Under the pieces are notes generated by a model. That model made no database searches and was not told where the DNA came from. It worked only from the letters and a program-made list of their open reading frames with translations. A program made the translations under genes and the position numbers. From a virus (Duplodnaviria; Caudoviricetes): a stretch of DNA of 64,000 nt. Positions 3 through 45,693 of this stretch are shown here, one piece after another. The number at the start of each line of letters is the position of its first letter. Positions within the stretch are counted from its first letter, which is position 1. The DNA lies in IMG/VR virus record IMGVR_UViG_3300025723_000026, positions 1 through 64,000 of that record; one strand, 5' to 3'.

Positions 3-2840
3 GCTGGTGAGCTTAGTGCTCTCTTTACAGAAAAACTTGTAACCGAGCTTGAAGAATATAAGCGTGATATAACTAAAGAGCTCAATGGTATTAATATTAC
101 CCTTGATAGTCTTATTAACGAGAAACTTGAAAAGAATAACGAAGAAGTAGATAAGCTCTTAGTCAATCGTTCAGGTATTCTCCAAGATCAGTTTAATGAA
201 TCAGTAACAGAGCAATTAGATAAACACAAGACAGAGTTATTCGATGAATTTAAAACCGTATCGACAAATACAGTTACAGGTTTATTTGAATCAAGAACAA
301 AAGAACTTAATACAGCTTTAGAGCTTGTTATTGACGAACACCGTAAGAATTTAAATACAACTATTGATCAGAAACTTAATGAAGTTAGTTCTTCGGTAAG
401 TAGATTTACTACTGATATTGAAGGTAAGCTACCTCAGCTAGATGAGACCATTAAAGATATTAACAAGAGATTACAAACCCTTGTTATTGAAAAGAAAAAC
501 GTTCAAGCTTTAGCTGATGATGCTAGAAAGTACACTGATACTAAGGTAGCTCAAGCTTCGGAAGAGATGATGAATTACGCTCGTCGTATTCTTGATCTTG
601 GAGGGGGTGGTGGCTCTGTAGCTGTTCAATTCGCCAATGGCGGTACTATGAATGGTAGCTTAAACGTCACCGGACAATACCTCTCCGGTGGTGTTGATAT
701 TAGTACATTATTTGGTAAGGGAGGGGGTGGAAGCGGTGGTACATATAGCCCTTATACAACAGGTACTAATACCGGTGCTATTATACCGGTTTCCGGTAGT
801 AATACAGCTTCAGGGATTTTTTCTAATGTAGCAGGTGGTTCAAATAATCTCACCTCAGGTAATTGTTCATTTGTCGGTGGTGGGGATACAAATTGTACTA
901 CGAATACACACGCTGTAGTTGCAGGTGGTAATCATAATTGCTCAATAGGGGGTGCTTCGTTTGTCGGTGGTGGTAGATTGAATACAGCATCAGCTCAGTA
1001 TAGCGCTGTTGTAGGTGGTAATCAAAATGGTAGCACATCTTATGCAGCTTCTGTGGTAGGCGGACAGAATAATAATGCCACAGGGGATTATTCTAGCGTA
1101 GTAGGTGGTAGTAATAATATAGCTTTAGGGAATCGATCCAATGTAACTGGTGGTATTTATAATACTTCTTCAGCATATGGTACCAATGTAGCAGGCGGAG
1201 GGTGTAACGCCGCTACACAAATTTATTCAAATGTAGCTGGCGGATATTGTAATACCGCTTCAGGATCCCATTCTAATGTAGCTGGTGGAGGTGGTAATAC
1301 TGCTTCTGGAAACTATTCAACTATTGCTAATGGTTCAAATGGTGATACTCAACCAAATGATACAAACTCTTGTAATTATATAGGCTATCAAGGTTCCGAT
1401 GGAAATTTGTATAGCGATAATACATGTTCAAATTATATCGGGCATTATTATAGTATAGCAGAAGGACCTTTATATTGCTGCACACAGACAAATTATACTC
1501 TTACCCAAACAGGTAATTTAGCTTGCGGTCAAAATAGTTTTATTGGTAACGGAAAAGGTTCTTGTGGTACTAGTTCAAATTATTGTGCTATAATAAACAA
1601 TAATACAGCTAGTGCTTATTACCAAAATTATAGTACCGGTAGTTGGGGTAGGGTTAATACAGCATCCGGTATTCATTCAACTGTCATTAATGGTTGTAAT
1701 AATATAGCTTCAGGGAATTTTTCTACAATTGCTGGTGGTTTTAATAACAATGATAACGGTCATTCGAATGTTTTTATTCTAGGTTCAAATCTTTGTGCTA
1801 CTCAGTCAGATACAACGTATGTCAATACAATAAATTCGCGTCTATACTGCGGTGGTACAGGATATGGCTCCACTAACTGTAATGGTACGTCATATGGGGG
1901 TATCGGTGGAACTATTAATATTAATGGTGGCAATGGTGCTGATAGCGATACCGGAAACGGTGGACCCGGTGGTTCAATTGATTTAACTGGCGGTAATTCT
2001 TCATCTGGTGGTTGCCCTGCAGGGAGTGGTGGATCGATTGATATGCGCGGAGCTGGTGGCTATAGTGTCGATCCCGGGGGATCTCTCAATACAAGCTGTG
2101 GTGGTGGATCGATTATAACTAATGGGACTGGATGTATTGGTCTAGGTTACGAGGGCTATGGAGTTGTCGGTAATAATTTCAGTAGCTCCCAAACAATGAT
2201 TTGCGGTACAGCTACTGCACATCGAGATATTTGTTTTCCTGATAAATCAGGTGTTGTTGCTTTATTGTCTGATACTTTATCACCGTATATCTCCGGTTCT
2301 GGTACTGCTTCAATTGTAACAGTGTACGGCATTAATACTGCTTCCGGTTGTTATAGTACTATTGGTGGAGGTAATTGTAATGCCGTGTCAGGGCGTTATT
2401 CGACAATTGTTAATGGATTTAGTAGTTGTGCTACAGGTTATGCAACATTTGTAGGAGCAGGAAGTGGTATTAAAGCTACGGGCAACTATGCTGTAGCTGT
2501 TGGTGGTCGGTGTAATACAGCTTCTGGAAATTATTCCAGTGTACTTGGTGGTGGTAATAATATTGCTTCTGGGGCTTGTTCAGCAATTCTTGGTGGTTGT
2601 AGAAATAACACGTCAAACGTAGATAATACATTTATTCTCGGTTCAGATATTACAGCTTCACTACCGAGTTATACATATGTGAATAATTTATCCTCGCAAG
2701 GAACCATCGCAACAAGTAATTTAATTATCAGTAAAACACCTAGCACATTTACAAACCCAGTAACAGCCTCTGGAACGTTCCTAATAGTAAATATTAACGG
2801 TACAAATAAAGCCATTCAACTCTGGGATTACTCTTCATAA
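3..2840 (+). CDS. Virion fibre-like protein, 5'-partial: coiled coil, ARRILDLGGGGGS junction, GGxxNxASG beta-roll repeats
   Basis: Frame 3 is open from position 3 (AGELSALFTEKLVTELEEY...), so the ORF starts before the window and the track's 567 start is internal; 14-15 aa repeats resemble YadA-head-type beta-rolls. Confidence 0.8.
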   Translation, partial: AGELSALFTEKLVTELEEYKRDITKELNGINITLDSLINEKLEKNNEEVDKLLVNRSGILQDQFNESVTEQLDKHKTELFDEFKTVSTNTVTGLFESRTKELNTALELVIDEHRKNLNTTIDQKLNEVSSSVSRFTTDIEGKLPQLDETIKDINKRLQTLVIEKKNVQALADDARKYTDTKVAQASEEMMNYARRILDLGGGGGSVAVQFANGGTMNGSLNVTGQYLSGGVDISTLFGKGGGGSGGTYSPYTTGTNTGAIIPVSGSNTASGIFSNVAGGSNNLTSGNCSFVGGGDTNCTTNTHAVVAGGNHNCSIGGASFVGGGRLNTASAQYSAVVGGNQNGSTSYAASVVGGQNNNATGDYSSVVGGSNNIALGNRSNVTGGIYNTSSAYGTNVAGGGCNAATQIYSNVAGGYCNTASGSHSNVAGGGGNTASGNYSTIANGSNGDTQPNDTNSCNYIGYQGSDGNLYSDNTCSNYIGHYYSIAEGPLYCCTQTNYTLTQTGNLACGQNSFIGNGKGSCGTSSNYCAIINNNTASAYYQNYSTGSWGRVNTASGIHSTVINGCNNIASGNFSTIAGGFNNNDNGHSNVFILGSNLCATQSDTTYVNTINSRLYCGGTGYGSTNCNGTSYGGIGGTININGGNGADSDTGNGGPGGSIDLTGGNSSSGGCPAGSGGSIDMRGAGGYSVDPGGSLNTSCGGGSIITNGTGCIGLGYEGYGVVGNNFSSSQTMICGTATAHRDICFPDKSGVVALLSDTLSPYISGSGTASIVTVYGINTASGCYSTIGGGNCNAVSGRYSTIVNGFSSCATGYATFVGAGSGIKATGNYAVAVGGRCNTASGNYSSVLGGGNNIASGACSAILGGCRNNTSNVDNTFILGSDITASLPSYTYVNNLSSQGTIATSNLIISKTPSTFTNPVTASGTFLIVNINGTNKAIQLWDYSS

Positions 2841-2843
2841 AAT

Positions 2844-5800
2844 ATGTCACTACAAATCGAAACACAGCCTTTTCAGTTTAATAGCTCCGTTACAGGTTTA
2901 TCTAGTGCTATCTTTAACTCAGTTTCTGCTGTATCTCTATCAGGTATATTCTATGGCGATGGGTCAAACTTAACCGGTGTTAGTAACTATAATGGATCTG
3001 ATATAAAAGCCCTCACTGGTAATTGGCAATCAACCTTTACTACTGTATCAGCTAAGTCAGGTAACTGGAATACAGCCTATAATAATGCAATCTATACAGT
3101 TAACGGTACCGCTAATCAAATTGTTGCAACCCCTACTGGAGCAAATACAGGAAATAACTCTGTTATAATAAGCTTACCAAATAGTGCAATATTTCCTGGT
3201 GATGTTTCTATTATTGGTAATTTAACTATAGCAGGGTCAGCTACCTATATTAATACTAAGAATCTCATAGTAGGTGATAACATTATCTATTTTAATGATA
3301 ACAATTATGGAAGCAATACCCTGGACATGGGTATTGTTTCTCATTTCTCTCAAGCCCCACTTGGCTACAACCATACAGGATTAATAAGAAGAGCAGGACA
3401 GGGAAACCCAGGTGTTTGGACTTTATTCTCTGGGTTAACAACTGAACCAGCATCTGCTACAAATATAGATTGGAATGATAAGAATATTGTAATTGATACA
3501 TTAAGTGCGAACTTAATCGGTAATGTAACAGGTAATGCTGACACCGTTACTAATGGTGTTTATACAAATCAATCATATTCTAATCCTTCATGGATTACTT
3601 CTTTAGCTGATACAAAGATTACAGGAACTACATTTGCTACTAATACTACACTACAGAGCACGTCAGCTCTTCTCACTACTCTAACTCTCACTAATACTCT
3701 TACATCTCAATTAGTTCTTAATACCACTTTTAATAACTATCAAACAAATGTAGCGAGTAGTACTGCCACTTTATTACCTACAAGTATCTATCAAAATACT
3801 TCTGGTTCATTTGTTCCCTATACGGCTATTAATTCTGTATCAGGTAACTGGAATACGGCTTATCAAGCTCTTTCAACTAATCCTTACATTCTCAATCAAA
3901 CTCTTTCTTCAACAACAACTCTTATTGGTTCTAATACAGCTAATAATACATTCTCAGAAGTCTTAGGAGGTAACTGTAATTTAGCATCTGGTACATATTC
4001 AACAATTGTCAATGGATTCAGTAGTTGTGCTACAGGTTACGCAACATTTATAGGAGCAGGAAGTGGTATTAAAGCTACAGGTAACTATGCTGTAGCTGTT
4101 GGTGGTCAGTGTAATACAGCTTCTGGTTGTTATAGTACTGTTGGGGGTGGTGTATCTAATACAGCTTCTGGTTCAAAATCCTTTGTCGGCGGTGGTGGGG
4201 CAAGTGGAGCTGGTAACACAGCATCAGCACAATATAGTATTATTGTAGGTGGTAAGCAAAACTGTATATCTGGGGTAAATTCGCACGGTATTATTGTAGG
4301 TGGTTGCAGTAACATATTATGTACAGTTGGCTCAGCAAATTACCCTGCTATAGTAGGCGGTCAAAGTAATAAACATACATACTCAGGTTATAGCTTTATA
4401 GGTGGAGGTTGTAATAATTGCACTTGCTCCCAATTTGGACAATCGCAAAATATAAACTATGCAACAGTTGTAGGTGGTAATGCAAATGCAGTAACTAATA
4501 ACTACTCAATCATTGGTGGAGGGTTAGGAAACTACAATCCATTAAGAGATTCTCAAATTGTTGGAGGTGTTGCAAACCATACTGGTGGTTATGCTCCTTC
4601 AAACTTTGTAACTGGTACTTCATTATCTGGTAATGGTTCATGTACCTGTATCTGTGGTACTAATATTCAGAACTGTTTCTCTTATCCCTTTACATCTGGT
4701 AACATTTCTGTTTATTATGCAACAGCTGCTAACCCATTAAGTGCTGGTACATTTAGTACTGCTACAATTGCTGCAACTGGTACAAACTATGTTATTCTTA
4801 ATACAGACTATAGTGCATGTTCAAATGGATTGAGTGCAACGAGCTTATATGTCTATGATAGAGCAATTAATAATACAGGTTATGATAACTTTATAGGTGG
4901 TGGAAAACTCAATACAGCTTCTGGTTGTTATGGAGTTATAGGTGGTGGTGTTTGTAATGTATCGACTGGAGCCTATGGTACTATTGCTGGTGGATGCTTT
5001 AACAAAGCAACAGGCTGTTTATCTTTTATTGGTAGTGGTAGAAATAACTGTACATCAAGCTCCAGGTCTGTAATCGTAGGTGGAGATAATAATACATCAT
5101 CCAATGGATATACGTTTATTGGTAATGGATATAATAATTGTGCATCTGGTAATGGAGCTGTGGTTGTTGGTGGTAATGGTAGCAATGTTTCGTCTGGTGG
5201 TAGTTCGTTTGTTGGAGCTGGTTCTAGTAATATAGCGTCAGGGGGACAGTCGGTAATTGTTGGTGGTATAACTAACTCTACATCAGGTTGTGTATCTACA
5301 ATCGTTGGGGGTAGATACAATTATAATCCTCTCTATAATTCTGATATTCATGGTGGTTCATTTAACCATACTGGTGGTTATGCTCCTTTAAACATCGTTA
5401 CAAGTACATCATTATCTGGTAATGGATCTTGTAGCTGTATTTGTGGTTCTAATATACAGAACTGTTTTGCTTCTGTTGCTTCTAATTCAATCTTTGCTTA
5501 CTATGCTACAGCAACAAACCCATTAAGTTCTGGTACATATACTACAGCTACCATTACAGCTTCTGGTACAAACTATGTTATCTTTAACAAAGACTTTAGT
5601 GCTTGTGTTAATGGTTTATCAGCGACTAATTTATATCTTTATGATAGTACTGTAAACAATACAGGATGCTTTAACTTTATTGGTGGTGGTGTATTGAATA
5701 CAGTTTCAGGTTGTTATGGTGTTTTAGGTGGTGGTAAATGTAATTTAGCTTCAGGTATTATGGCTATAGTTGGTGGCGGTTGCTGTAACATTGCATCTGG

Positions 5801-6743
5801 TGGACAAAGTACGGTATCTGGCGGTTATAAAAATACAGCATCTGGTGGATACAATACTGTTGGTGGTGGTAGTACAAATACTGCTGGTACTGGTAACGGT
5901 AACACTGTAGCTGGTGGCAGAGGTAATGTAGCATCTGGTGGTTATGGACTTATTGGTAGTGGTTATGGCAATAACAACGCTGGTGGTTATTCGGCAATTG
6001 CTGGTGGTTGTACTAACTGCGCGTGTGGCACAGTTTACCCTAATCCTGCTTTTCAGTTTATTGGGGCAGGCGCTTGTAATAAAGTATCTAATGGATTTAC
6101 CTCTATCGTTGGCGGTTTCTGCAATACAGCTTCTGGTAACTATTCCTTCGTTGCTGGTGGTTCTGCTAATGATACAAAGGGATTTACTAATACCTTCATC
6201 TTAGGTACAGCATTGAGTGCAACACAGGCTAATACAACATATGTCAATAATCTCTCCGTTCAAGGTAATATAGCTTCTAATACATCATATGTTGTAACAG
6301 CAGCTTTAACAGCTAATCAAACAATGGGTAGTGGTACCGATACAGTCTTAACACTCGATCCTAAGAATGATCCAAATAGCTGGTTTAGTAGAACAGCAGG
6401 AACAGGATTAACTGCTCGTAGAATTACACCGACAATTCCTGGTTATTATAACATTAATTATCAAGTTAGTTGGCAACCGAGTGTGTCGGCTGTTGGTGCC
6501 CAAAACAATATTCAAATAATGAAAGTTTCAGGCGGTACAGGCTCAGCCAATACAATATCTATTGTACAGCAACCCATTATTAATACATCTATTAATACCA
6601 CACAAAATACATCAGCTGTAACTTATATGAACGGTACAACTGATTATCTTTATTTTCAGGGATATTCAAGTAATTCGGCTCAGGTAGTTACAGGTGAATC
6701 TAATGGTGTTTGGACAAAGGTTGAAGTCTTTAAGATTAACTAA
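2844..6743 (+). CDS. Long tail fibre/adhesin with beta-roll repeats, a duplicated insertion domain and a C1q/TNF-like C-terminal domain
   Basis: 1299 aa; many GG(x)CNTASG repeats; C-terminus TPTIPGYYNINYQV...YMNGTTDYLYFQGY resembles C1q-like heads. Confidence 0.75.
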   Translation: MSLQIETQPFQFNSSVTGLSSAIFNSVSAVSLSGIFYGDGSNLTGVSNYNGSDIKALTGNWQSTFTTVSAKSGNWNTAYNNAIYTVNGTANQIVATPTGANTGNNSVIISLPNSAIFPGDVSIIGNLTIAGSATYINTKNLIVGDNIIYFNDNNYGSNTLDMGIVSHFSQAPLGYNHTGLIRRAGQGNPGVWTLFSGLTTEPASATNIDWNDKNIVIDTLSANLIGNVTGNADTVTNGVYTNQSYSNPSWITSLADTKITGTTFATNTTLQSTSALLTTLTLTNTLTSQLVLNTTFNNYQTNVASSTATLLPTSIYQNTSGSFVPYTAINSVSGNWNTAYQALSTNPYILNQTLSSTTTLIGSNTANNTFSEVLGGNCNLASGTYSTIVNGFSSCATGYATFIGAGSGIKATGNYAVAVGGQCNTASGCYSTVGGGVSNTASGSKSFVGGGGASGAGNTASAQYSIIVGGKQNCISGVNSHGIIVGGCSNILCTVGSANYPAIVGGQSNKHTYSGYSFIGGGCNNCTCSQFGQSQNINYATVVGGNANAVTNNYSIIGGGLGNYNPLRDSQIVGGVANHTGGYAPSNFVTGTSLSGNGSCTCICGTNIQNCFSYPFTSGNISVYYATAANPLSAGTFSTATIAATGTNYVILNTDYSACSNGLSATSLYVYDRAINNTGYDNFIGGGKLNTASGCYGVIGGGVCNVSTGAYGTIAGGCFNKATGCLSFIGSGRNNCTSSSRSVIVGGDNNTSSNGYTFIGNGYNNCASGNGAVVVGGNGSNVSSGGSSFVGAGSSNIASGGQSVIVGGITNSTSGCVSTIVGGRYNYNPLYNSDIHGGSFNHTGGYAPLNIVTSTSLSGNGSCSCICGSNIQNCFASVASNSIFAYYATATNPLSSGTYTTATITASGTNYVIFNKDFSACVNGLSATNLYLYDSTVNNTGCFNFIGGGVLNTVSGCYGVLGGGKCNLASGIMAIVGGGCCNIASGGQSTVSGGYKNTASGGYNTVGGGSTNTAGTGNGNTVAGGRGNVASGGYGLIGSGYGNNNAGGYSAIAGGCTNCACGTVYPNPAFQFIGAGACNKVSNGFTSIVGGFCNTASGNYSFVAGGSANDTKGFTNTFILGTALSATQANTTYVNNLSVQGNIASNTSYVVTAALTANQTMGSGTDTVLTLDPKNDPNSWFSRTAGTGLTARRITPTIPGYYNINYQVSWQPSVSAVGAQNNIQIMKVSGGTGSANTISIVQQPIINTSINTTQNTSAVTYMNGTTDYLYFQGYSSNSAQVVTGESNGVWTKVEVFKIN

Positions 6744-6795
6744 ATGTTCTGTAGTATAGGACTCGAATTTTATAGTTTTTTAAGTAAATACTAAC

Positions 6796-8307
6796 GTGGA
6801 ACAAGATCCGTTTATAAACTTTCTATCCAATCTCACCGAGAAGATTAGTGTTGAAAAAGAGCATAAGGCGTTGATGGAGAAAATAAACTCCGAACAACCT
6901 ACTCTAACGGTATCACCATTAGAAGAAACTCTATCCAGATTACAAGAAAAAATAACTCAACAAGTTCAAGCTCATATAGAAGTTACTACACCAAAAGAAA
7001 AAATTGAAGAGGTGGTAATTAATGAAAATAAAGAAGAGCAAATATTAGAAGAAGAGAGTTTTGGTGACTTTGTTAATAAGCTTGAAAATATTCTTAAAAC
7101 ACCAAGAAAAGAAATACCTATTCAGGATATTGTTAAAGAAGAAGCTCCAATTGAAGAAGAACCTATTGATGAAATAGAGCCAGAAATAAACCCCTATGTT
7201 CAAGAGCTTATGAAACAATCAATTGAAAAACAACCGGAATCAAGCAAGTATATTAACGATCTTGATAAACTTACAACAAAAGTCGTAGCTGAAAAACAAC
7301 CTGAAAAAATAGAAGATGTTAAGAAATTAATCGAAGAGTATGTTACAAAATACGCTAGGAGAATTTTGGATCTCGGCGGCGGCGGTGGATCAGTGGCTCA
7401 GCAATTTGCCAATGGCGGTACAATGAATGGTAATCTTAATGTTACCGGACAGTACCTCTCCGGTGGTGTTGATCTTGCTAGTATTATTGCAAGTAATTTT
7501 AATACAGGTAATTTTGCTTTTAGTGGTAGTGAGATTTATACTGTAGATAATAGCGATATAATTATAGGTAGTAATATTGTTCCATCGAGTAATACTTTTA
7601 GTTTAGGTTCTTTAGGCAATCCTTTTGATACACTTTATCTAGCAGCAAATTCTTTATCTCTTGCTTCTAATTCCCCTGGTGCTTCAGCTCTAACTATAGA
7701 AAATGATGGTAAAAATTTTAATATTCTTAACGGTGGTTTACGCTCGTTAGAATTATATACCGGTGGTTTACTATTAAGTGGTAATAATATTGGAGCCGAT
7801 CCTATGGCTAGTGGATTACCTATGAATATAGGTACTAACGGCTTACCTGCTGTTAATTTCCTTGCACCTTTGAGTGCACAATCTAATACATATTTAAATA
7901 GTGTTACAGCAACTAAAGCGCAAATAGGTAAATCGTTTTCAAACTTTACAGATATTTCAACTGTTACAAATACAACAGCTATTAGTGCTGATTTTTCAAA
8001 AGACACGCTCATTCATCTTCATGCCTATAAAAATGGAACAATTAATTCTGTATCTAGCCCACTTAAAATTGTTCCTATCAATTTTACTGCAGGGAGTACG
8101 GTTGATATTCTTATCTTTAACCCGTTGCCTAGTAACGGTGTTGTTTATGTGGACTGGGGGGGTGTATATGCTACATTCCCTAACTATCAAAATTCAAATG
8201 GAGCTCCATATATTGTTGCTCTAAGTAGTATAGGTACAACACAAACCTATCACTTTAGATACATCTGTATTGACGGTACGCTAGCTAACACATTTATTAC
8301 AACATAA
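6796..8307 (+). CDS. Structural protein: acidic coiled coil, ARRILDLGGGGGS junction, variable C-terminal domain
   Basis: 503 aa; shares junction module with the first ORF; TAAATA 5 nt before GTG start. Confidence 0.65.
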   Translation: MEQDPFINFLSNLTEKISVEKEHKALMEKINSEQPTLTVSPLEETLSRLQEKITQQVQAHIEVTTPKEKIEEVVINENKEEQILEEESFGDFVNKLENILKTPRKEIPIQDIVKEEAPIEEEPIDEIEPEINPYVQELMKQSIEKQPESSKYINDLDKLTTKVVAEKQPEKIEDVKKLIEEYVTKYARRILDLGGGGGSVAQQFANGGTMNGNLNVTGQYLSGGVDLASIIASNFNTGNFAFSGSEIYTVDNSDIIIGSNIVPSSNTFSLGSLGNPFDTLYLAANSLSLASNSPGASALTIENDGKNFNILNGGLRSLELYTGGLLLSGNNIGADPMASGLPMNIGTNGLPAVNFLAPLSAQSNTYLNSVTATKAQIGKSFSNFTDISTVTNTTAISADFSKDTLIHLHAYKNGTINSVSSPLKIVPINFTAGSTVDILIFNPLPSNGVVYVDWGGVYATFPNYQNSNGAPYIVALSSIGTTQTYHFRYICIDGTLANTFITT

Positions 8308-17917: not shown

Positions 17918-18496
17918 TTAAACATTAAAAGACTGACATTCTTTTAATGTTTTTAAAATTGTAAGATTGTTGAGTTGCTTCGTTATAATATCAATTTTAG
18001 CTCGTTGTACATTATATGCAATAGGATTCTTCGGATCGAGGTATAAATTATATTCTGTTAAAAAGAAATCGGGAAAATAATTATGCGTAGTACCATTAAG
18101 ATCTGTCCACGGTATTGGTTGCGTTGGCCGTATCCACGCGATATTAAGTTCATCCAGTCTTTTTGCTAGCGCTTCTTCCCAAGATGAGTCGAGTAGCACT
18201 TCTGTACCGTCTTTGCATTTATATGTACGAGTGGATCTTACTAGTCGACGGTGTGTAGACTTAAGAGCTATAGCTCTTAATTTGTCCTTCGTTTCTTGTG
18301 TTTGTATACGGCCTTTAGTATTGTATTTTGCATTCTCATATTTTCCCTCAGCGTGTGCTTTTCTAACTCTCTCACTAGCACCTATTTTAATACTCTCGCT
18401 GTGCAATTTTTTATTTAAGTCAATATTTGGATTTTCTGAGCACCATCTCATGTGAATACTATTCAATACCTCTTTATCACAATACTTACATTTCAT
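17918..18496 (-). CDS. Free-standing PD-(D/E)xK endonuclease with NUMOD3-like segment
   Basis: DSSWE...YFPDFFLTEYNLYLDPK; KGRIQTQETKDKLR. Confidence 0.7.
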   Translation of the reverse strand: MKCKYCDKEVLNSIHMRWCSENPNIDLNKKLHSESIKIGASERVRKAHAEGKYENAKYNTKGRIQTQETKDKLRAIALKSTHRRLVRSTRTYKCKDGTEVLLDSSWEEALAKRLDELNIAWIRPTQPIPWTDLNGTTHNYFPDFFLTEYNLYLDPKNPIAYNVQRAKIDIITKQLNNLTILKTLKECQSFNV

Positions 18497-18548: not shown

Positions 18549-18625
18549 TGGTACAACCGGAGGGACTTGAACCCCCATAAGCCGAGGTAGAAGCTCGGTA
18601 CTTTATCCAGTTAAGTTACGGTTGC
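18549..18625 (-). tRNA. tRNA-Arg(UCU)
   Basis: Cloverleaf, loop CT-TCT-AC, CCA encoded. Confidence 0.92.
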
Positions 18626-18703: not shown

Positions 18704-19294
18704 CTAATTTTTAAATTCTTTTAAAAAGATCTCCCAATCAGTAATATTATGCTTATTACGAATATAGAAGGTTGATGGAAGCTCTCTCGGAATTATAGGC
18801 TGCCGTACAAGCTTTAGTCCAGCCTCTTCAGGTGTACGTGATCCTTTCTTTGAATTGACTTCCTTGTGACAGAGAACGCAATTCGTCCAATCAGTCTTAC
18901 CACCTCGGGTACGAGGAATGACATGATCGATATTGGCTTCAGATTTTGAAAGCTTCTTATTAGTATATTGACAGGTGCCGTTATCTCGAGTCCAGATATT
19001 ACTATGGGTAAACTTCGGACGTTTCATTGGTACCTTATCATACTCACAGAGAACAATAACAGTAGGAATCTTAATGCTACCACGAGTTGTTTTAATATAC
19101 GAGGCCTTTTCATCAAAAGGCAAATTAACCCAATCCGACCATTTGAGTGGTACCATCATATCATATCCTCGAATATCTAAAGCTGTTGCTGTATTCTGAT
19201 ACATCATGACAAAAGCATCAGCTGGAGATTTTGTATGAATGGCTTGCCAGTTTCTATTAAGAACTAGCACTGTCTCCTGTTTAAGGTACGACAT
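18704..19294 (-). CDS. HNH endonuclease (McrA-like)
   Basis: VLVLNRNW, IWTRDNGTCQY, NIDHVIPRTRGG, NCVLCHKEVN; start moved to MSYLK because the longer ORF overlaps tRNA-Val. Confidence 0.85.
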   Translation of the reverse strand: MSYLKQETVLVLNRNWQAIHTKSPADAFVMMYQNTATALDIRGYDMMVPLKWSDWVNLPFDEKASYIKTTRGSIKIPTVIVLCEYDKVPMKRPKFTHSNIWTRDNGTCQYTNKKLSKSEANIDHVIPRTRGGKTDWTNCVLCHKEVNSKKGSRTPEEAGLKLVRQPIIPRELPSTFYIRNKHNITDWEIFLKEFKN

Positions 19295-19325
19295 ATATGT
19301 ATATTTAATTAATTGTAAAGAAAGA

Positions 19326-19401
19326 TGGTACACCAGAAGGGATTCGAACCCCTGACATTCTGCGTGTAAGGCAGACGCTACTACCACTGAGCTACTGGTG
19401 C
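19326..19401 (-). tRNA. tRNA-Val(UAC)
   Basis: Cloverleaf, loop CT-TAC-AC, CCA. Confidence 0.92.
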
Positions 19402-19943: not shown

Positions 19944-20017
19944 TGGAGCGGGTAGAGAGAATTGAACTCTCGCATCAAGTTTGGTAAACTCGCAGGCTAC
20001 CATTACATCATACCCGC
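19944..20017 (-). tRNA. tRNA-Gly(ACC), rare A34 anticodon
   Basis: GCGGGTA/TACCCGC, U73, CCA; stem CGAGT/ACTTG, loop TT-ACC-AA. Confidence 0.9.
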
Positions 20018-20381: not shown

Positions 20382-21032
20382 TTAAGTCTTATATTTACAA
20401 TTATTGAAATGAAACCGTGCCATAGTATTTTTAGCGCCTTCCTTTAAGCAATAAGGGCATTTAATTTTTTGTCGCTTAAGACCTCTATTACGCCGCCCGC
20501 CAAACGACGGTGACTCTTTGTTTCGCTGTAAAAGTGATTGGCGTATTTTTTCTTTATGCTCTTCAGTTTTATTACCTGATGCAGCTTTTCGTGCATGTTC
20601 ACGCTGCAATTCAGGGTTTTTTCTAGCAAAATTATTTGCTATCATTTTTTTTCTCGTTTCGTCACTTGCTTTGCGATTAGTGGCTTTTAAACGTAAAATA
20701 GCCTTTGTTTCATCAGTATGTCGTTTATTTTGAAACGTTAAATTATTTTTTTCTTTTGATCCGTAACCGCCACCGGGCATTAAATTGTAAGTATCAGATC
20801 GTAGACAAAAATCAGCATCAACAATTTCTGCTTCTCTATAAAGCATCTCTTCTTTGGAGTCAAAATATTCTAATATTTCTTTTGTAAAGCACGCCTTACC
20901 ATATTTGTTAATATCTCTTATAAGAGCTTTACCTGAGCCAAAATAATAATCGTTAATATCGCGGGACTGATGTACACCTATATAAAACTTATTATTAATG
21001 TTATTTGTAATTTTATACAAGTAATATATCAT
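20382..21032 (-). CDS. GIY-YIG homing endonuclease (Seg-like)
   Basis: YYLYKITNNINNKFYIGVH, YFGSG, YNLMPGGG, NUMOD3-like KRHTDETK. Confidence 0.88.
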   Translation of the reverse strand: MIYYLYKITNNINNKFYIGVHQSRDINDYYFGSGKALIRDINKYGKACFTKEILEYFDSKEEMLYREAEIVDADFCLRSDTYNLMPGGGYGSKEKNNLTFQNKRHTDETKAILRLKATNRKASDETRKKMIANNFARKNPELQREHARKAASGNKTEEHKEKIRQSLLQRNKESPSFGGRRNRGLKRQKIKCPYCLKEGAKNTMARFHFNNCKYKT

Positions 21033-21076
21033 ATAATAATATTTATGTAAAGGTAGCACATTAATCAATTAAAGAC

Positions 21077-21238: not shown

Positions 21239-21329
21239 TGGCGGATAGGGTAGGATTCGAACCCACGGTACCCTTCCGGGTACTTCTGATTTCAAGTCAG
21301 ATGCAATAGACCAACTCTGCCACCTATCC
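21239..21329 (-). tRNA. tRNA-Ser(UGA)
   Basis: Long variable arm, loop CT-TGA-AA, G73. Confidence 0.92.
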
Positions 21330-21337
21330 GTAAAAAT

Positions 21338-21511
21338 TTATTGACAATGATAATTGAGGTAACGTTGAGCGGCTTTAGCTGTTAAACCACCTTTACCTTT
21401 TAATGAACGTGCTTTAGAACATGTAAGCTTACCTTTAACCTGACGTTTAAGAATGCCTGGGTGACGTGGTTCATCGATACTTTTTTCTGTTACATATTCC
21501 TTAAAAGTCAT
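21338..21511 (-). CDS. Small basic late protein (57 aa) inside tRNA array
   Basis: Translated by hand: MTFKEYVTEKSIDEPRHPGILKRQVKGKLTCSKARSLKGKGGLTAKAAQRYLNYHCQ; TAAATA upstream. Confidence 0.7.
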   Translation of the reverse strand: MTFKEYVTEKSIDEPRHPGILKRQVKGKLTCSKARSLKGKGGLTAKAAQRYLNYHCQ

Positions 21512-21523
21512 AAAGTTATTTAA

Positions 21524-21613
21524 TGGAGGAAGCTGAGGGATTCGAACCCTCGGAGGCGATAAAGCCTCGGTTGTTTAGTAAACAACTCTCTTAAACCGCT
21601 TGAGTAAGCTTCC
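21524..21613 (-). tRNA. tRNA-Ser(ACU), rare A34 anticodon
   Basis: GGAAGCT/AGCTTCC, long variable arm, stem GTTGT/ACAAC, loop TT-ACT-AA, CCA. Confidence 0.88.
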
Positions 21614-22207: not shown

Positions 22208-22621
22208 TTATGACGGTTTTGAACGTCTTTTATGGTAATGAAAATCTGCATGACAGTTTCTACAAAGAGGTATACACTTTTTAATTTCTTCCTGTAAGAG
22301 CTGCGTGTTATATCTATTAACAAAATAAGATATTTCATTTGCTTTCGTACTCGGATCTACATGATGTAAATCTAAACACCAAGGACGATCTTCATTACAC
22401 TTTGTGCATTTAAGTGTAGCTTTATATTCAAGAAATTTATTTCTAAAATTAGCGTTCGATTTATACGCACTAGCAATATATTTTTTCTTATTTGCGTCGT
22501 AATGTTTTCTAGCGTACTTGTTTTTTGCACATTGCTTACAATAGGGAAAATAACCATGCTTTGTATTTTTATAATATGAATTAAGTGACTTTGTCTCTTT
22601 ACATTGACTACAGGTTTTCAT
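22208..22621 (-). CDS. HNH homing endonuclease
   Basis: CSQC...CKQC; CTKC...LDLHHVDP...KCIPLCRNCHADFH. Confidence 0.85.
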   Translation of the reverse strand: MKTCSQCKETKSLNSYYKNTKHGYFPYCKQCAKNKYARKHYDANKKKYIASAYKSNANFRNKFLEYKATLKCTKCNEDRPWCLDLHHVDPSTKANEISYFVNRYNTQLLQEEIKKCIPLCRNCHADFHYHKRRSKPS

Positions 22622-24150: not shown

Positions 24151-24225
24151 TGGTGCGACAGGTCAGAGTTGAACTGACTTCCTTCCCGTTATGAGCAGGC
24201 CGCTCGACCGTTGAGCTTCTATCGC
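24151..24225 (-). tRNA. tRNA(CAU), elongator Met or Ile2
   Basis: Loop CT-CAT-AA, paired 1:72, CCA. Confidence 0.82.
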
Positions 24226-24589: not shown

Positions 24590-24681
24590 TGGTACTCCTG
24601 CCCGGTTCTGCCCCGGGATCGCGCCCTCATCTAGGACTTCTGGTGTATAAGACCAGTGTTTTACTGTTAAACTACAGGAGC
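24590..24681 (-). tRNA. tRNA with UAU anticodon (Ile), long variable arm and GGCAGAA T-loop
   Basis: GCTCCTG/CAGGAGT-A-CCA; stem CTGGT/ACCAG, loop CT-TAT-AC; 22-nt variable region. Confidence 0.8.
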
Positions 24682-42807: not shown

Positions 42808-45693
42808 ATGTCCGATAACGCACGGTTCCATAATAAGCTTCACAGAAAGAATCATCACTCCATCTGTACACCAGGATATCCTGATTCAGCAACAGATCCT
42901 ATTGCCTCACAAGCAGAACCGTTTCAGGGTGATTTTTATATTAACGGTAATATCAACGCAACAGGCGCTCTTAATACTACATTTGTTACTCTCTCAAACA
43001 TTAGTATACCTACTCCTGTTTTATCAGCTACTATTGGATTTAATCCAACAAATTCTCTCATTGTTCAACTATCTGGCACTCAATACGCTATCCCTGTAAC
43101 GTATGTAGGTCCTCTCGGTACATCGGCTCCAGCGATTCTTAGCAACTCTCTTTCTGGTAACCTAGGATTTGGTACAAATGCTCCAAGCTATCCGATAGAC
43201 ATTGTAGGTAGTAATAATGGTATAAAAACGTCATTTTATGGTACTTCAAACAACCTAGGCAATGCTACCTACATGTATCAAAGTTCAGCTGGAAGCGCTA
43301 CTTTTTCAAACAATACATACGAACAAAATGGCTCGAGGATAGCATCTCTCTCTACCGGCGGTTGGATGACTATAAGTCAAGCAGGTCAATTTCGCTTTCA
43401 TCAATTCAGCGGTCAAGTAGCAGGTCAAACTGTAACTTCAACAACTCCTGTTATTATTTTATCCTCCGGTCAAGTTGGTATAGGAACAACTACACCTAAT
43501 AAGGCACTAACCGTCTCCGGCGATATTAGTGCAGCGAATGCTATCTATGATGCGACTGGTAATAGTAATAATTGGAACACTACCTATACAACAGTATGTG
43601 CAAATAGTGCAAGTTGGCAATCTAGTTTAGTTGTTGATAGTTACGTAATATCAAATAGTGCTACCTTCGATAGTTCATATAATGTTACTGTATACGCTAA
43701 GCTTTCTTCCCAGCCCTATACCCTCACGAATGTAAACTCAATTCAAGCAAATATAGGTGGTAACAATGCATTAAGTGCTTATTCAGGTGTACTTGCCGGC
43801 TACTACAATACATCATCAGGCTATGGATCATTAGTCGTAGGTGGTGGTAATAATATGGCGTCAGGCTATTTTTCAAATGTTCATGGTGGTGTTAGTAACA
43901 ATGCATTAAGCGCATATTCCGCTGTTCTTGCAGGCTTTAACAATACATCATCAGGCTACGGGTCCTTAGTCGTAGGTGGTGGTAATAATACGGCATCAGG
44001 CTGTGGAGCGATAATTGCCGGTGGTGGTAATAATACGGCATCAGGCTGTGGAGCGATAATTGCCGGTGGTTATAATAATGTAGCTTCAGGATACCTATCC
44101 AATATTCTTGGAGGTACTGGTAATAGTCTTTCAGGCAATAATTCATTTGCCTTAGGGTCAAATATTGTATCAACTACACCTAATTATACATTTGTAAATA
44201 ATCTATCCTCTCAATCCCTAGTACAGTCATCTAGTTCATGTACTGGCTATCTCAATGTAAGTCAAAATAGTGTCGGAGCAGCGCTATCAAATGTTCGTGC
44301 ACAATTTACTTCTAATCTTAATAGTTTTTCACAAATTAATCATCAAAATACAAACAGTGGAACATATGCATCGACAGATGTTGTTGTTACAGCTGATAAC
44401 GGTAATGATACACAAAACTATCTCGATTTAGGTATTAATAGTAGTACGTATTCTTCGCCCTCTTATACTATTACCGGTCCTAACGATGCGTATCTGTATA
44501 CACAAAATTGCAACATTGCAATAGGTACGGCGTCAAACGCCAATATACTCTTTCATACCGGTGGCACACTTGCAAGTAATGAACGTATGCGTGTTACAGG
44601 TTCAGGATGCGTTGGTATAGGTACAAGTACACCGAACAACACATTGACCGTTGTAGGTAATATCTCAGCAACAGGTAATGCATATTTTACAAATACCGTT
44701 TACTGTGCAGGTATAAACCAGGGTTCAATACAACCAGCAAATACAACAAATACTGCATCAAACGTTTATACACTTATCGCTGGTGGTAGTAATAATATTG
44801 TCACAGGAGCCGGTTCAACTGTGGTTGGTGGTTATTGTAATATTGTGTCAAGCTGCTGTGGTAGTATTCTCGGTGGTTTGTGTAATAATAATAGCGGTAC
44901 TCTATCTATAATAGGTGGTGGTAATAATAATATTACTTTCTCCGGTTACGGTAGTATTCTAGGCGGAAGTAATAACAAAACATGCTGTTATAGCGTAGTA
45001 GTAGGAGGTTACAATAACAGTGCTTATGGCTGTTACTCAGTAACTGGGGGCGGGCTTGGTAATACAAGCTCTGGTACTTATAGTAGTGTAGTAGGTGGAT
45101 GCTGTAATGTAAACAATGGAAGTCTTAGCTTTATTGCTGGTGGTTATAATAATACCATACAAAATGGTGTAAACGATGCTTTTATATTAGGTTCTAATAT
45201 AAACGCTACATGTTCAAACTACACCTACGTAGAGGGAATTATTGCAAATAACGGTATAAATGCAAACTGCGCTACTATTAATAGCATTTACAGTAATGTC
45301 TCAATTTGCACGTACAGTCTCAGTGCGTTTAGCGTTAATGCATATAGTACAAATATCTGTGATTCTACTGTTAATAGAAATAGTGTTATTGGTGGTAATT
45401 TAACAGTATTAGGTAATATCTATTCACCTTTATTCTCATCTCTAACCGGTACAGGTTCATTTGTACTCTCAGGTGGTAGTAAATATTCAACTGTATTTGG
45501 CGATGGTGTTGCATCAACCTTTATTATTAACCATAACTTAAACACAAGCGATATAGTAATGACAGTTATTGACTTTAATACAGCTCAGGTTGTATATCCG
45601 ACTGTTACGATTAATAATTTAAATCAGGTACAAATTAATTTCTCTTTTGTACCGCCACCATTAAGTTATAAGATATCAATCATAGGTCTTTAA
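42808..45693 (+). CDS. Tail fibre-like protein with beta-roll repeats
   Basis: 961 aa; GIGTTTP motifs; GGxNNxASG repeats; HNLNT C-terminus. Confidence 0.75.
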   Translation: MSDNARFHNKLHRKNHHSICTPGYPDSATDPIASQAEPFQGDFYINGNINATGALNTTFVTLSNISIPTPVLSATIGFNPTNSLIVQLSGTQYAIPVTYVGPLGTSAPAILSNSLSGNLGFGTNAPSYPIDIVGSNNGIKTSFYGTSNNLGNATYMYQSSAGSATFSNNTYEQNGSRIASLSTGGWMTISQAGQFRFHQFSGQVAGQTVTSTTPVIILSSGQVGIGTTTPNKALTVSGDISAANAIYDATGNSNNWNTTYTTVCANSASWQSSLVVDSYVISNSATFDSSYNVTVYAKLSSQPYTLTNVNSIQANIGGNNALSAYSGVLAGYYNTSSGYGSLVVGGGNNMASGYFSNVHGGVSNNALSAYSAVLAGFNNTSSGYGSLVVGGGNNTASGCGAIIAGGGNNTASGCGAIIAGGYNNVASGYLSNILGGTGNSLSGNNSFALGSNIVSTTPNYTFVNNLSSQSLVQSSSSCTGYLNVSQNSVGAALSNVRAQFTSNLNSFSQINHQNTNSGTYASTDVVVTADNGNDTQNYLDLGINSSTYSSPSYTITGPNDAYLYTQNCNIAIGTASNANILFHTGGTLASNERMRVTGSGCVGIGTSTPNNTLTVVGNISATGNAYFTNTVYCAGINQGSIQPANTTNTASNVYTLIAGGSNNIVTGAGSTVVGGYCNIVSSCCGSILGGLCNNNSGTLSIIGGGNNNITFSGYGSILGGSNNKTCCYSVVVGGYNNSAYGCYSVTGGGLGNTSSGTYSSVVGGCCNVNNGSLSFIAGGYNNTIQNGVNDAFILGSNINATCSNYTYVEGIIANNGINANCATINSIYSNVSICTYSLSAFSVNAYSTNICDSTVNRNSVIGGNLTVLGNIYSPLFSSLTGTGSFVLSGGSKYSTVFGDGVASTFIINHNLNTSDIVMTVIDFNTAQVVYPTVTINNLNQVQINFSFVPPPLSYKISIIGL
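43975..44064 (+). repeat. Two identical 45-bp coding tandem repeats
   Basis: GGTGGTGGTAATAATACGGCATCAGGCTGTGGAGCGATAATTGCC x2 (GGGNNTASGCGAIIA). Confidence 0.9.

Follow-up and report, generated by a model that had tools for sequence, protein, structure and literature searches.

A phage tRNA-Ser(ACU) carrying a wobble adenosine in the Ser/Arg split codon box is conserved within its clade and recurs in other phages and bacteria

A phage tRNA array within the 64,000-nucleotide stretch of DNA analysed here (the window) includes a gene for tRNA-Ser(ACU), at positions 21524–21613 on the minus strand, in which A34 takes the place of the G34 of the canonical AGY reader. The gene is intact, is maintained by selection across a diverged phage clade and has counterparts in unrelated phages and in cellular genomes; as to its charging, modification state and decoding range, we infer a serine-charged tRNA that reads AGU, and probably AGC, with A34 unmodified, a reading to which we assign a probability of about 0.6. 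The gene is one conserved representative of an isoacceptor type that is widespread, annotated in databases and seemingly unstudied; the window adds one more clade to this type and is not a unique event. A description of tRNA-Ser(ACU) was not found in the literature searched, and the main text of a census of virus tRNAs offers nothing on anticodons (PMC6409571). A 2021 review describes A34 as "universally missing" from the Ser-Arg split box and says that the same "prohibited" genes are absent among phage tRNAs (PMC8007984).

A serine-type tRNA gene in a phage tRNA array

The window is part of a 76.3 kb contig, a lake phage fragment of 36% GC with ribonucleotide reductase and many large fibre-type genes, which CheckV places at ~35% of a genome; a megablast search of its tRNA region returned no close match among cultured phages. 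ARAGORN detects 21 co-oriented tRNAs in the window and assigns exactly the same 90-nt span to tRNA-Ser(act) whether it is run on the window or on the whole contig. No tRNA-Ser(GCU) was found by ARAGORN on the 76.3 kb contig. Also in the array, all on the minus strand, are tRNA-Ser(UGA) (21239–21329), a UCN reader with G73 that is a regular neighbour of Ser(ACU) in relatives; tRNA-Arg(UCU) (18549–18625), the cognate reader of AGA and AGG and a probable competitor against misreading by Ser(ACU); and tRNA-Gly(ACC) (19944–20017), a second tRNA with A34.

The Rfam tRNA model (RF00005) scores the tRNA-Ser(ACU) gene at 51 bits (gathering score 29, E 1e-8), and the minimum-energy fold of its strand is the cloverleaf, at -32 kcal/mol (z -4.2), with none of 200 shuffles folding equally well. 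The acceptor stem, GGAAGCU/AGCUUCC, supplies G1-C72, G2-C71 and A3-U70; the D stem has 3 bp, the anticodon stem is GUUGU/ACAAC, and the anticodon loop reads U32 U33 A34 C35 U36 A37 A38. The long arm of a class II tRNA is formed by ~18 nt of variable region, in which 5 bp pair as a stem (GAGGC/GCCUC); the T loop is UUCGAAU, and CCA is encoded. G2-C71 is an identity element for E. coli SerRS, whereas the discriminator here is U73 and not G73, a minor identity element of bacterial tRNA-Ser. U36 followed by A37 is the usual context for t6A37 in readers of ANN codons. The best full-length matches in cultured phages are tRNA-Ser genes; those of Kuttervirus (tRNA-Ser(GCU) of Vi01, PhaxI and BSP101) align over the full length at 74–76% identity. 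Like the window tRNA, bacterial and phage tRNA-Ser(GCU) have a class II body, a long variable arm, G2-C71 and a YU-NCU-AA loop with A37, and the phage form occupies the same kind of position in tRNA arrays; unlike it, they have G34 and usually G73. A scan for promoters and terminators around the gene gave counts at chance level.

Some further features of the array were recorded. A 57-aa ORF (21338–21511, minus strand) lies between the two serine tRNAs; it is basic (MTFKEY...KGKLTCSKARSL...), and a counterpart (L439:4989-5171) is present in a relative, G003, each lying directly after tRNA-Ser(ACU). At 24154–24225 (minus) the Rfam model finds a tRNA of 50.5 bits that ARAGORN missed; its anticodon, determined by hand, is CAU, of the Met or Ile2 type, and the stem beneath it is weak, positions 27-43 forming a G-A mismatch. 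A second tRNA found by Rfam only, at 24593–24681 (minus, 47 bits), combines a UAU anticodon with a variable arm in class II style, and relatives have ARAGORN 'Ile(tat)' genes of 93–95 nt at the matching place. Judged from their translations, the array ORFs at 17918–18496, 18704–19387, 20382–21068 and 22208–22621 (all minus) resemble homing endonucleases, with a GIY-YIG-like motif and HNH or zinc-finger-like motifs.

Maintenance of the ACU anticodon in a diverged clade

The contig has many relatives among viral contigs from lake and other metagenomes, with NrdB 78–95% identical. Seven of the relatives anchored on NrdB carry tRNA-Ser(ACT) and none carries GCT. We aligned ten diverged copies of tRNA-Ser(ACU), comprising the window gene and nine homologues, three of which are family members from the pattern scan described below. 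In this cloverleaf alignment 19 of the 27 stem pairs show compensatory double changes, the variable-arm stem included, and the ten copies have six distinct versions of the anticodon stem around an unvarying YUACUAA loop. G2-C71 is present in all ten copies, A34 in the window tRNA and all of its homologues, and the U36-A37-A38 context expected for t6A37 is invariant; the discriminator is U or A across the clade.

For five large relatives (CheckV 73–100% complete) the records were searched with the Rfam tRNA model and all tRNAs inspected. Four of them (73–91% complete) have Ser(ACU) and Ser(UGA) and lack Ser(GCU), and in the fifth the model found no serine tRNA. The relative G003 shares the acceptor stem, U73 and CCA of the window tRNA, followed by the 57-aa ORF and then by tRNA-Arg(ACG). 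In this clade the discriminator of Ser(UGA), too, is G73 in some members and U73 in others, which marks U73 as a trait of the clade and not of ACU. Gly(ACC), by contrast, is patchy: relatives with Ser(ACU) carry Gly with GCC, UCC or ACC anticodons. The two A34 anticodons therefore arose separately and differ in age.

On these sequence comparisons, the ACU anticodon is inherited, old and maintained, and is not a recent mutation or a one-off. Every relative that carries the gene has ACT, so the possibility left by the earlier note that relatives would have GCT instead falls away, while its structural description (a class II serine-type tRNA with G2-C71, A3-U70, a long variable arm, a TT-ACT-AA loop and U73) was correct throughout.

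Replacement of tRNA-Ser(GCU) in viral tRNA arrays

Scanning IMG/VR with a pattern in which a YTACTAA loop and a GGTTCRAATCC T arm stand at a class II distance from each other yielded at least 110 tRNA-Ser(ACT) genes confirmed by ARAGORN and very different in sequence. As this set was selected for ACT, a second scan was run in which one common anticodon stem was fixed and the wobble base left free (CGGTTTNCTAAACCG). Its 120 matches include 66 with G and ~19 with A at the wobble position, the latter made up of three in new loci and about 16 inferred from 17 re-hit loci (10 of the 17 listed); the remainder are Arg CCT or TCT. For this one fixed anticodon stem there is thus ~1 A per 3.5 G, and roughly one in five AGY-type serine tRNAs is ACU. 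ACT and GCT share a locus in only one of 113 ACT-bearing viral loci, and ACU therefore appears to replace GCU in phage arrays. Ser(ACU) is carried together with tRNA-Arg(ACG) in seven viral loci as well as in G003.

ACT and GCT forms are well separated in sequence. With the wobble column removed, GCT is the nearest neighbour of 4 of the 160 distinct ACT tRNAs; the best ACT/GCT identity in the metagenome sample is 87%, with no closer pairs, and the window tRNA is 83% identical to its closest ACT relative and 70% to its closest GCT relative. Recent ACT/GCT switches were looked for in this sample and rejected, no pair exceeding 87% identity. A FastTree tree of 252 unique AGY tRNAs needs 25 A/G changes, against ~75 with shuffled labels, so that the A34/G34 trait is strongly clustered, in an alignment whose ~90 columns cannot separate repeated origins from tree error.

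ARAGORN also reports other A34 tRNAs in phage arrays, namely Thr(AGU), Leu(AAG), His(AUG), Ser(AGA), Tyr(AUA) and Cys(ACA). Several of these are in split boxes, and some may be false calls or pseudogenes (loci L101, L114, L115, L123, L124, L167, L226, L228, L231, L249, L252, L258, L299, L303, L306 and L308).

Cultured phages and cellular counterparts

Among cultured phages, tRNA-Ser(act) is annotated in Escherichia phage 121Q (KM507819), and ARAGORN concurs. All 18 records of the 121Q-like Asteriusvirus jumbo phages of E. coli, one of them isolated on K-12 MG1655, have a 100% identical Ser(ACU). As in the window, this gene has the same anticodon and loop context and lies in a tRNA array next to Ser(UGA); unlike the window gene, it has another body sequence and G73, and the host E. 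coli has TadA. No functional study of the 121Q tRNA was found in the literature.

A Kuttervirus-wide occurrence of ACT (~150 records, extrapolated from GG32) was considered and rejected, as inspection of the sequences shows GCT in BSP101, SJ2 and PhaxI. A 100% match to the ACT form is limited to GG32 and STP07 (3 records), against ~180 GCT records, and the other full-length Kuttervirus matches, among those listed, are 97.8% identical, which is the two-base difference of the checked GCT records. GG32 (L206:1501-1589) and STP07 differ from L434, L435 and L436 in two bases only, G34A and G73A. Together with the usual Kuttervirus tRNA-Ser(GCU) they provide, among cultured phages, a natural pair of near-isogenic ACU and GCU genes, and their two-base difference shows that the switch from G34 to A still happens.

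That a single G-to-A change turns GCU into ACU, and that the rare Kuttervirus variant exists at all, would fit a mutated tRNA-Ser(GCU) gene copy that is neutral or in decay and has no role. The conservation data contradict this: the anticodon loop is invariant amid extensive compensatory stem changes in the ten clade copies, the gene is the sole AGY tRNA in the near-complete records of four relatives, the Asteriusvirus copies are all identical, and neither the window tRNA nor the sample at large has a near-identical GCT partner. We regard a neutral copy as highly improbable.

The discriminator base bears on a different proposal, in which the tRNA is not, or not only, charged with serine, and a non-G discriminator shifts its identity towards that of a mistranslating or regulatory tRNA. 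U73 in the window and A73 in some relatives and in GG32 depart from the bacterial serine norm; GG32 and STP07 couple the change of G34 to A with that of G73 to A; and by a rough acceptor-pairing heuristic non-G73 is commoner in viral ACT (40 of 115) than in viral GCT tRNAs (10 of 69). Yet most tRNA-Ser(ACU) genes, those of the candidate phyla radiation (CPR) and of 121Q included, have G73, and the alternation in Ser(UGA) of the clade, the conserved serine-type variable arm with G2-C71, and the abundance of AGT in structural genes, where miscoding would be costly, all speak for serine. A shifted identity is accordingly very unlikely in our judgement.

The same ACT pattern was applied to cellular genomes, one per species. 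Among the 120 matches listed, at least 59 are tRNA-Ser(ACT) by ARAGORN, and where a title was shown these are mostly from metagenome-assembled genomes of Patescibacteria/CPR. tRNA-Ser(GCT) is located within the same 8 kb at 27 of these 59 loci, and among the matches listed tRNA-Arg(GCG) occurs nearby six times and Arg(ACG) never. The CPR tRNAs share the anticodon, the UUACUAA loop and the serine-type body of the window tRNA, and a serine-type class II body with a YU-ACU-AA loop is thus kept across diverged phage and CPR genomes. In contrast to the phage genes, those of CPR are cellular and often stand beside Ser(GCU), as an extra isoacceptor and not as a replacement.

tRNA-Ser(ACT) was also seen in isolate genomes of a free-living betaproteobacterium, L361 (Polynucleobacter sp. 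31A-FELB) and L367. The 3' acceptor strand of the L361 gene mismatches its 5' strand, as at an integration-site hybrid, and from its sequence the gene may belong to an integrated element.

Codon usage

In the 80 long ORFs of the contig AGT outnumbers AGC by 418 to 179 (70% of AGY), and AGA makes up 41% of arginine codons. The main users of AGT are the large fibre and structural genes of the plus strand (the run at 42808–63602, counted together with 567–8307), at 25.7 AGT per 1000 codons, against 11.5 in minus-strand genes; these counts bear out the statement in the earlier note that AGT is common in the fibre genes. GCU pairs with AGC by Watson-Crick geometry and with AGU by wobble, and for ACU the reverse applies. 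In the window phage the tRNAs for Asn, Asp, His, Tyr, Cys and Ile nevertheless have G34, although their boxes are 73–85% U-ending, and a bias towards U-ending codons alone is therefore not the cause of Ser(ACU); a simple rule of retuning to U does not explain the switch of Ser(AGY) in particular. The same note had read Ser(ACU) and Gly(ACC) as two tRNAs independently retuned to U-ending codons. Their independence stands, given that the two are separate events, but retuning in this phage is not supported, since Ser(ACU) is inherited clade-wide and is found in unrelated phages and in CPR, and since the closest GCU tRNA shares only 70% identity with it.

We then compared viral contigs bearing ACT with those bearing GCT; they are phylogenetically related and not independent, and all p-values given for this comparison are indicative only. 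Median GC is 0.37 for ACT-bearing and 0.415 for GCT-bearing contigs (p 3e-6), no ACT-bearing contig in the sample compared exceeds 50% GC, and AGY codons account for 0.44 and 0.33, respectively, of serine codons (p 2.5e-6). Among contigs of 33–45% GC, AGT stands at 19.1 per 1000 codons with ACT and 15.2 with GCT (p 0.007), and AGA at 14.0 and 18.4 (p 0.001), with AGG equal. AGA is lower in the ACT-bearing contigs despite their slightly higher AT; this deficit could be a trace of the cost of misreading or a lineage effect. Codon tuning beyond base composition was tested and rejected, as the residual of AGT/AGY on the other NNT/NNY boxes is the same for ACT and GCT contigs (p 0.78). A preferential co-carriage of Arg(UCU) was likewise rejected, this tRNA being no commoner with ACT than with GCT.

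The lack of an AGT excess over composition, and the replacement of GCU in phage arrays, would suit a tRNA whose A34 form owes its existence chiefly to defences that target tRNAs: where such a system cuts or disables the host tRNA-Ser(GCU), the A34 version would elude it or stand in for the lost tRNA. The parallel is with phage tRNA arrays that counter tRNA-cleaving defences through nuclease-resistant changes in the anticodon loop (PMC10264068). However, a nuclease targeting Ser(GCU) was not named in the literature checked, and Ser(gct) is the untargeted serine tRNA in that same work (PMC10264068); moreover, CPR cells keep the ACU anticodon next to GCU, and the restriction of ACT to contigs below 50% GC in the sample points to codon supply instead. 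Escape from a nuclease therefore seems to us a decidedly unlikely main function.

The wobble adenosine and TadA

The motif recognised by TadA is U33-A34-C35-G36, in which the preference for G36 is strict (PMC10586758); the window tRNA has U33-A34-C35 followed by U36. Apart from Arg(ACG), TadA is reported to deaminate none of the A34 tRNAs of bacteria, whether natural or mutant (PMC3711424). Arg(ACG) resembles Ser(ACU) in U33-A34-C35, A38 and a 7-nt loop, and adjoins it in some phages, but it has G36, a class I body and arginine identity. The sole deaminase on the contig (12615–13052, minus strand) is of the dCMP-deaminase type, matching PF00383 at 58 bits and the TadA model at 20 bits against a cut-off of 150; a PF14437 match over the same span was considered as TadA and rejected. 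As the contig is ~35% of a genome, the absence of TadA from it proves little.

Ser(ACU) occurs in settings with TadA, namely E. coli phages, phages that carry Arg(ACG), and Polynucleobacter, where the L361 genome has a clear TadA (206 bits). It also occurs in CPR seemingly without the enzyme: in four CPR genomes with Ser(ACU) the TadA model scores 0, 0, 19 and 43 bits against the cut-off of 150, and CPR genomes of this kind have Arg(GCG) nearby.

Were A34 nonetheless converted to inosine, by a relaxed host TadA or by some phage enzyme, the resulting ICU would read both AGU and AGC efficiently, while at AGA the weak I-A pairing would either be tolerated or lose out to tRNA-Arg(UCU). This reading has the merit that ACU by itself could then take over both AGY codons from GCU; it draws on the loop positions shared with Arg(ACG) (U33, A34, C35 and A38) and on the description of I-A pairing as inefficient (PMC3711424), and AGA is somewhat depleted in ACT-bearing contigs. 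U36 is set against it, given the strict requirement of TadA for G36 (PMC10586758), as are the other natural and mutant A34 tRNAs that TadA leaves untouched (PMC3711424), the success of Ser(ACU) in CPR genomes that have Arg(GCG) and no recognisable TadA, the dCMP-deaminase type of the only deaminase on the contig, and the share of 41% that AGA still holds among arginine codons in the window phage. On balance we find inosine unlikely. A34 most likely stays adenosine because U36 stands where TadA strictly requires G36.

What an undeaminated A34 reads is documented for three tRNAs, Mycoplasma capricolum tRNA-Thr(AGU), a Salmonella mutant tRNA-Pro(AGG) and an E. coli mutant tRNA-Gly(ACC), in which it decodes U and C well (PMC3711424). 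In the Salmonella tRNA-Pro mutant it read C almost as well as G34 did, and in tRNA-Gly and Mycoplasma tRNA-Thr it read all four codons, those ending in A most weakly (PMC3711424). These tRNAs serve four-codon family boxes, where any third base is harmless, whereas ACU is in the split Ser/Arg box. The contention of the earlier note that A34 must stay unmodified, to avoid reading AGA, is thus plausible and indirectly supported, in view of U36 and of the restriction of TadA to Arg(ACG), but its reasoning is incomplete: in family boxes unmodified A34 itself reads C, G and, weakly, A, so that the unmodified state alone does not remove the risk at AGR codons.

Discussion

We propose that the phage tRNA-Ser(ACU) is a working, serine-charged tRNA that serves the AGY codons where tRNA-Ser(GCU) would usually do so. 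Recognition by SerRS would depend on the acceptor stem and the long variable arm and be independent of the anticodon. A34, unmodified, would form a Watson-Crick pair with the third base of AGU, which outnumbers AGC and is concentrated in the late fibre genes, and AGC would probably be read as well, by analogy with the other tRNAs with an unmodified A34. Misreading of AGA and AGG is presumably low, as A would pair poorly with purines in a box whose first pair is A-U and the phage tRNA-Arg(UCU) would compete.

Several observations count against this reading. The discriminator is U73 instead of the usual G73, AGT/AGY shows no excess over composition, and G34 is retained in other U-rich boxes. Unmodified A34 read all four codons in the three family-box cases, so that fidelity at AGG and AGA is not accounted for.

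More broadly, we see an even chance that tRNA-Ser(ACU) is a widespread natural split-box tRNA with an unmodified A34 that serves phages as their only AGY reader in TadA-positive hosts. If so, an unmodified wobble adenosine separates U and C from A and G accurately enough in vivo, the textbook reason for the universal absence of A34 from split boxes would be overturned, and the 121Q-like coliphages on E. coli K-12 would be a ready experimental system. The window tRNA and its relatives, under clear purifying selection, are natural counter-examples to the statement that A34 is missing from this box in cells and phages alike (PMC8007984). They make it possible to test at the bench what an unmodified wobble adenosine reads and why cells avoid A34, and they bear on the tuning of phage tRNA sets and on genome annotation, where pipelines may regard ANN anticodons with suspicion.
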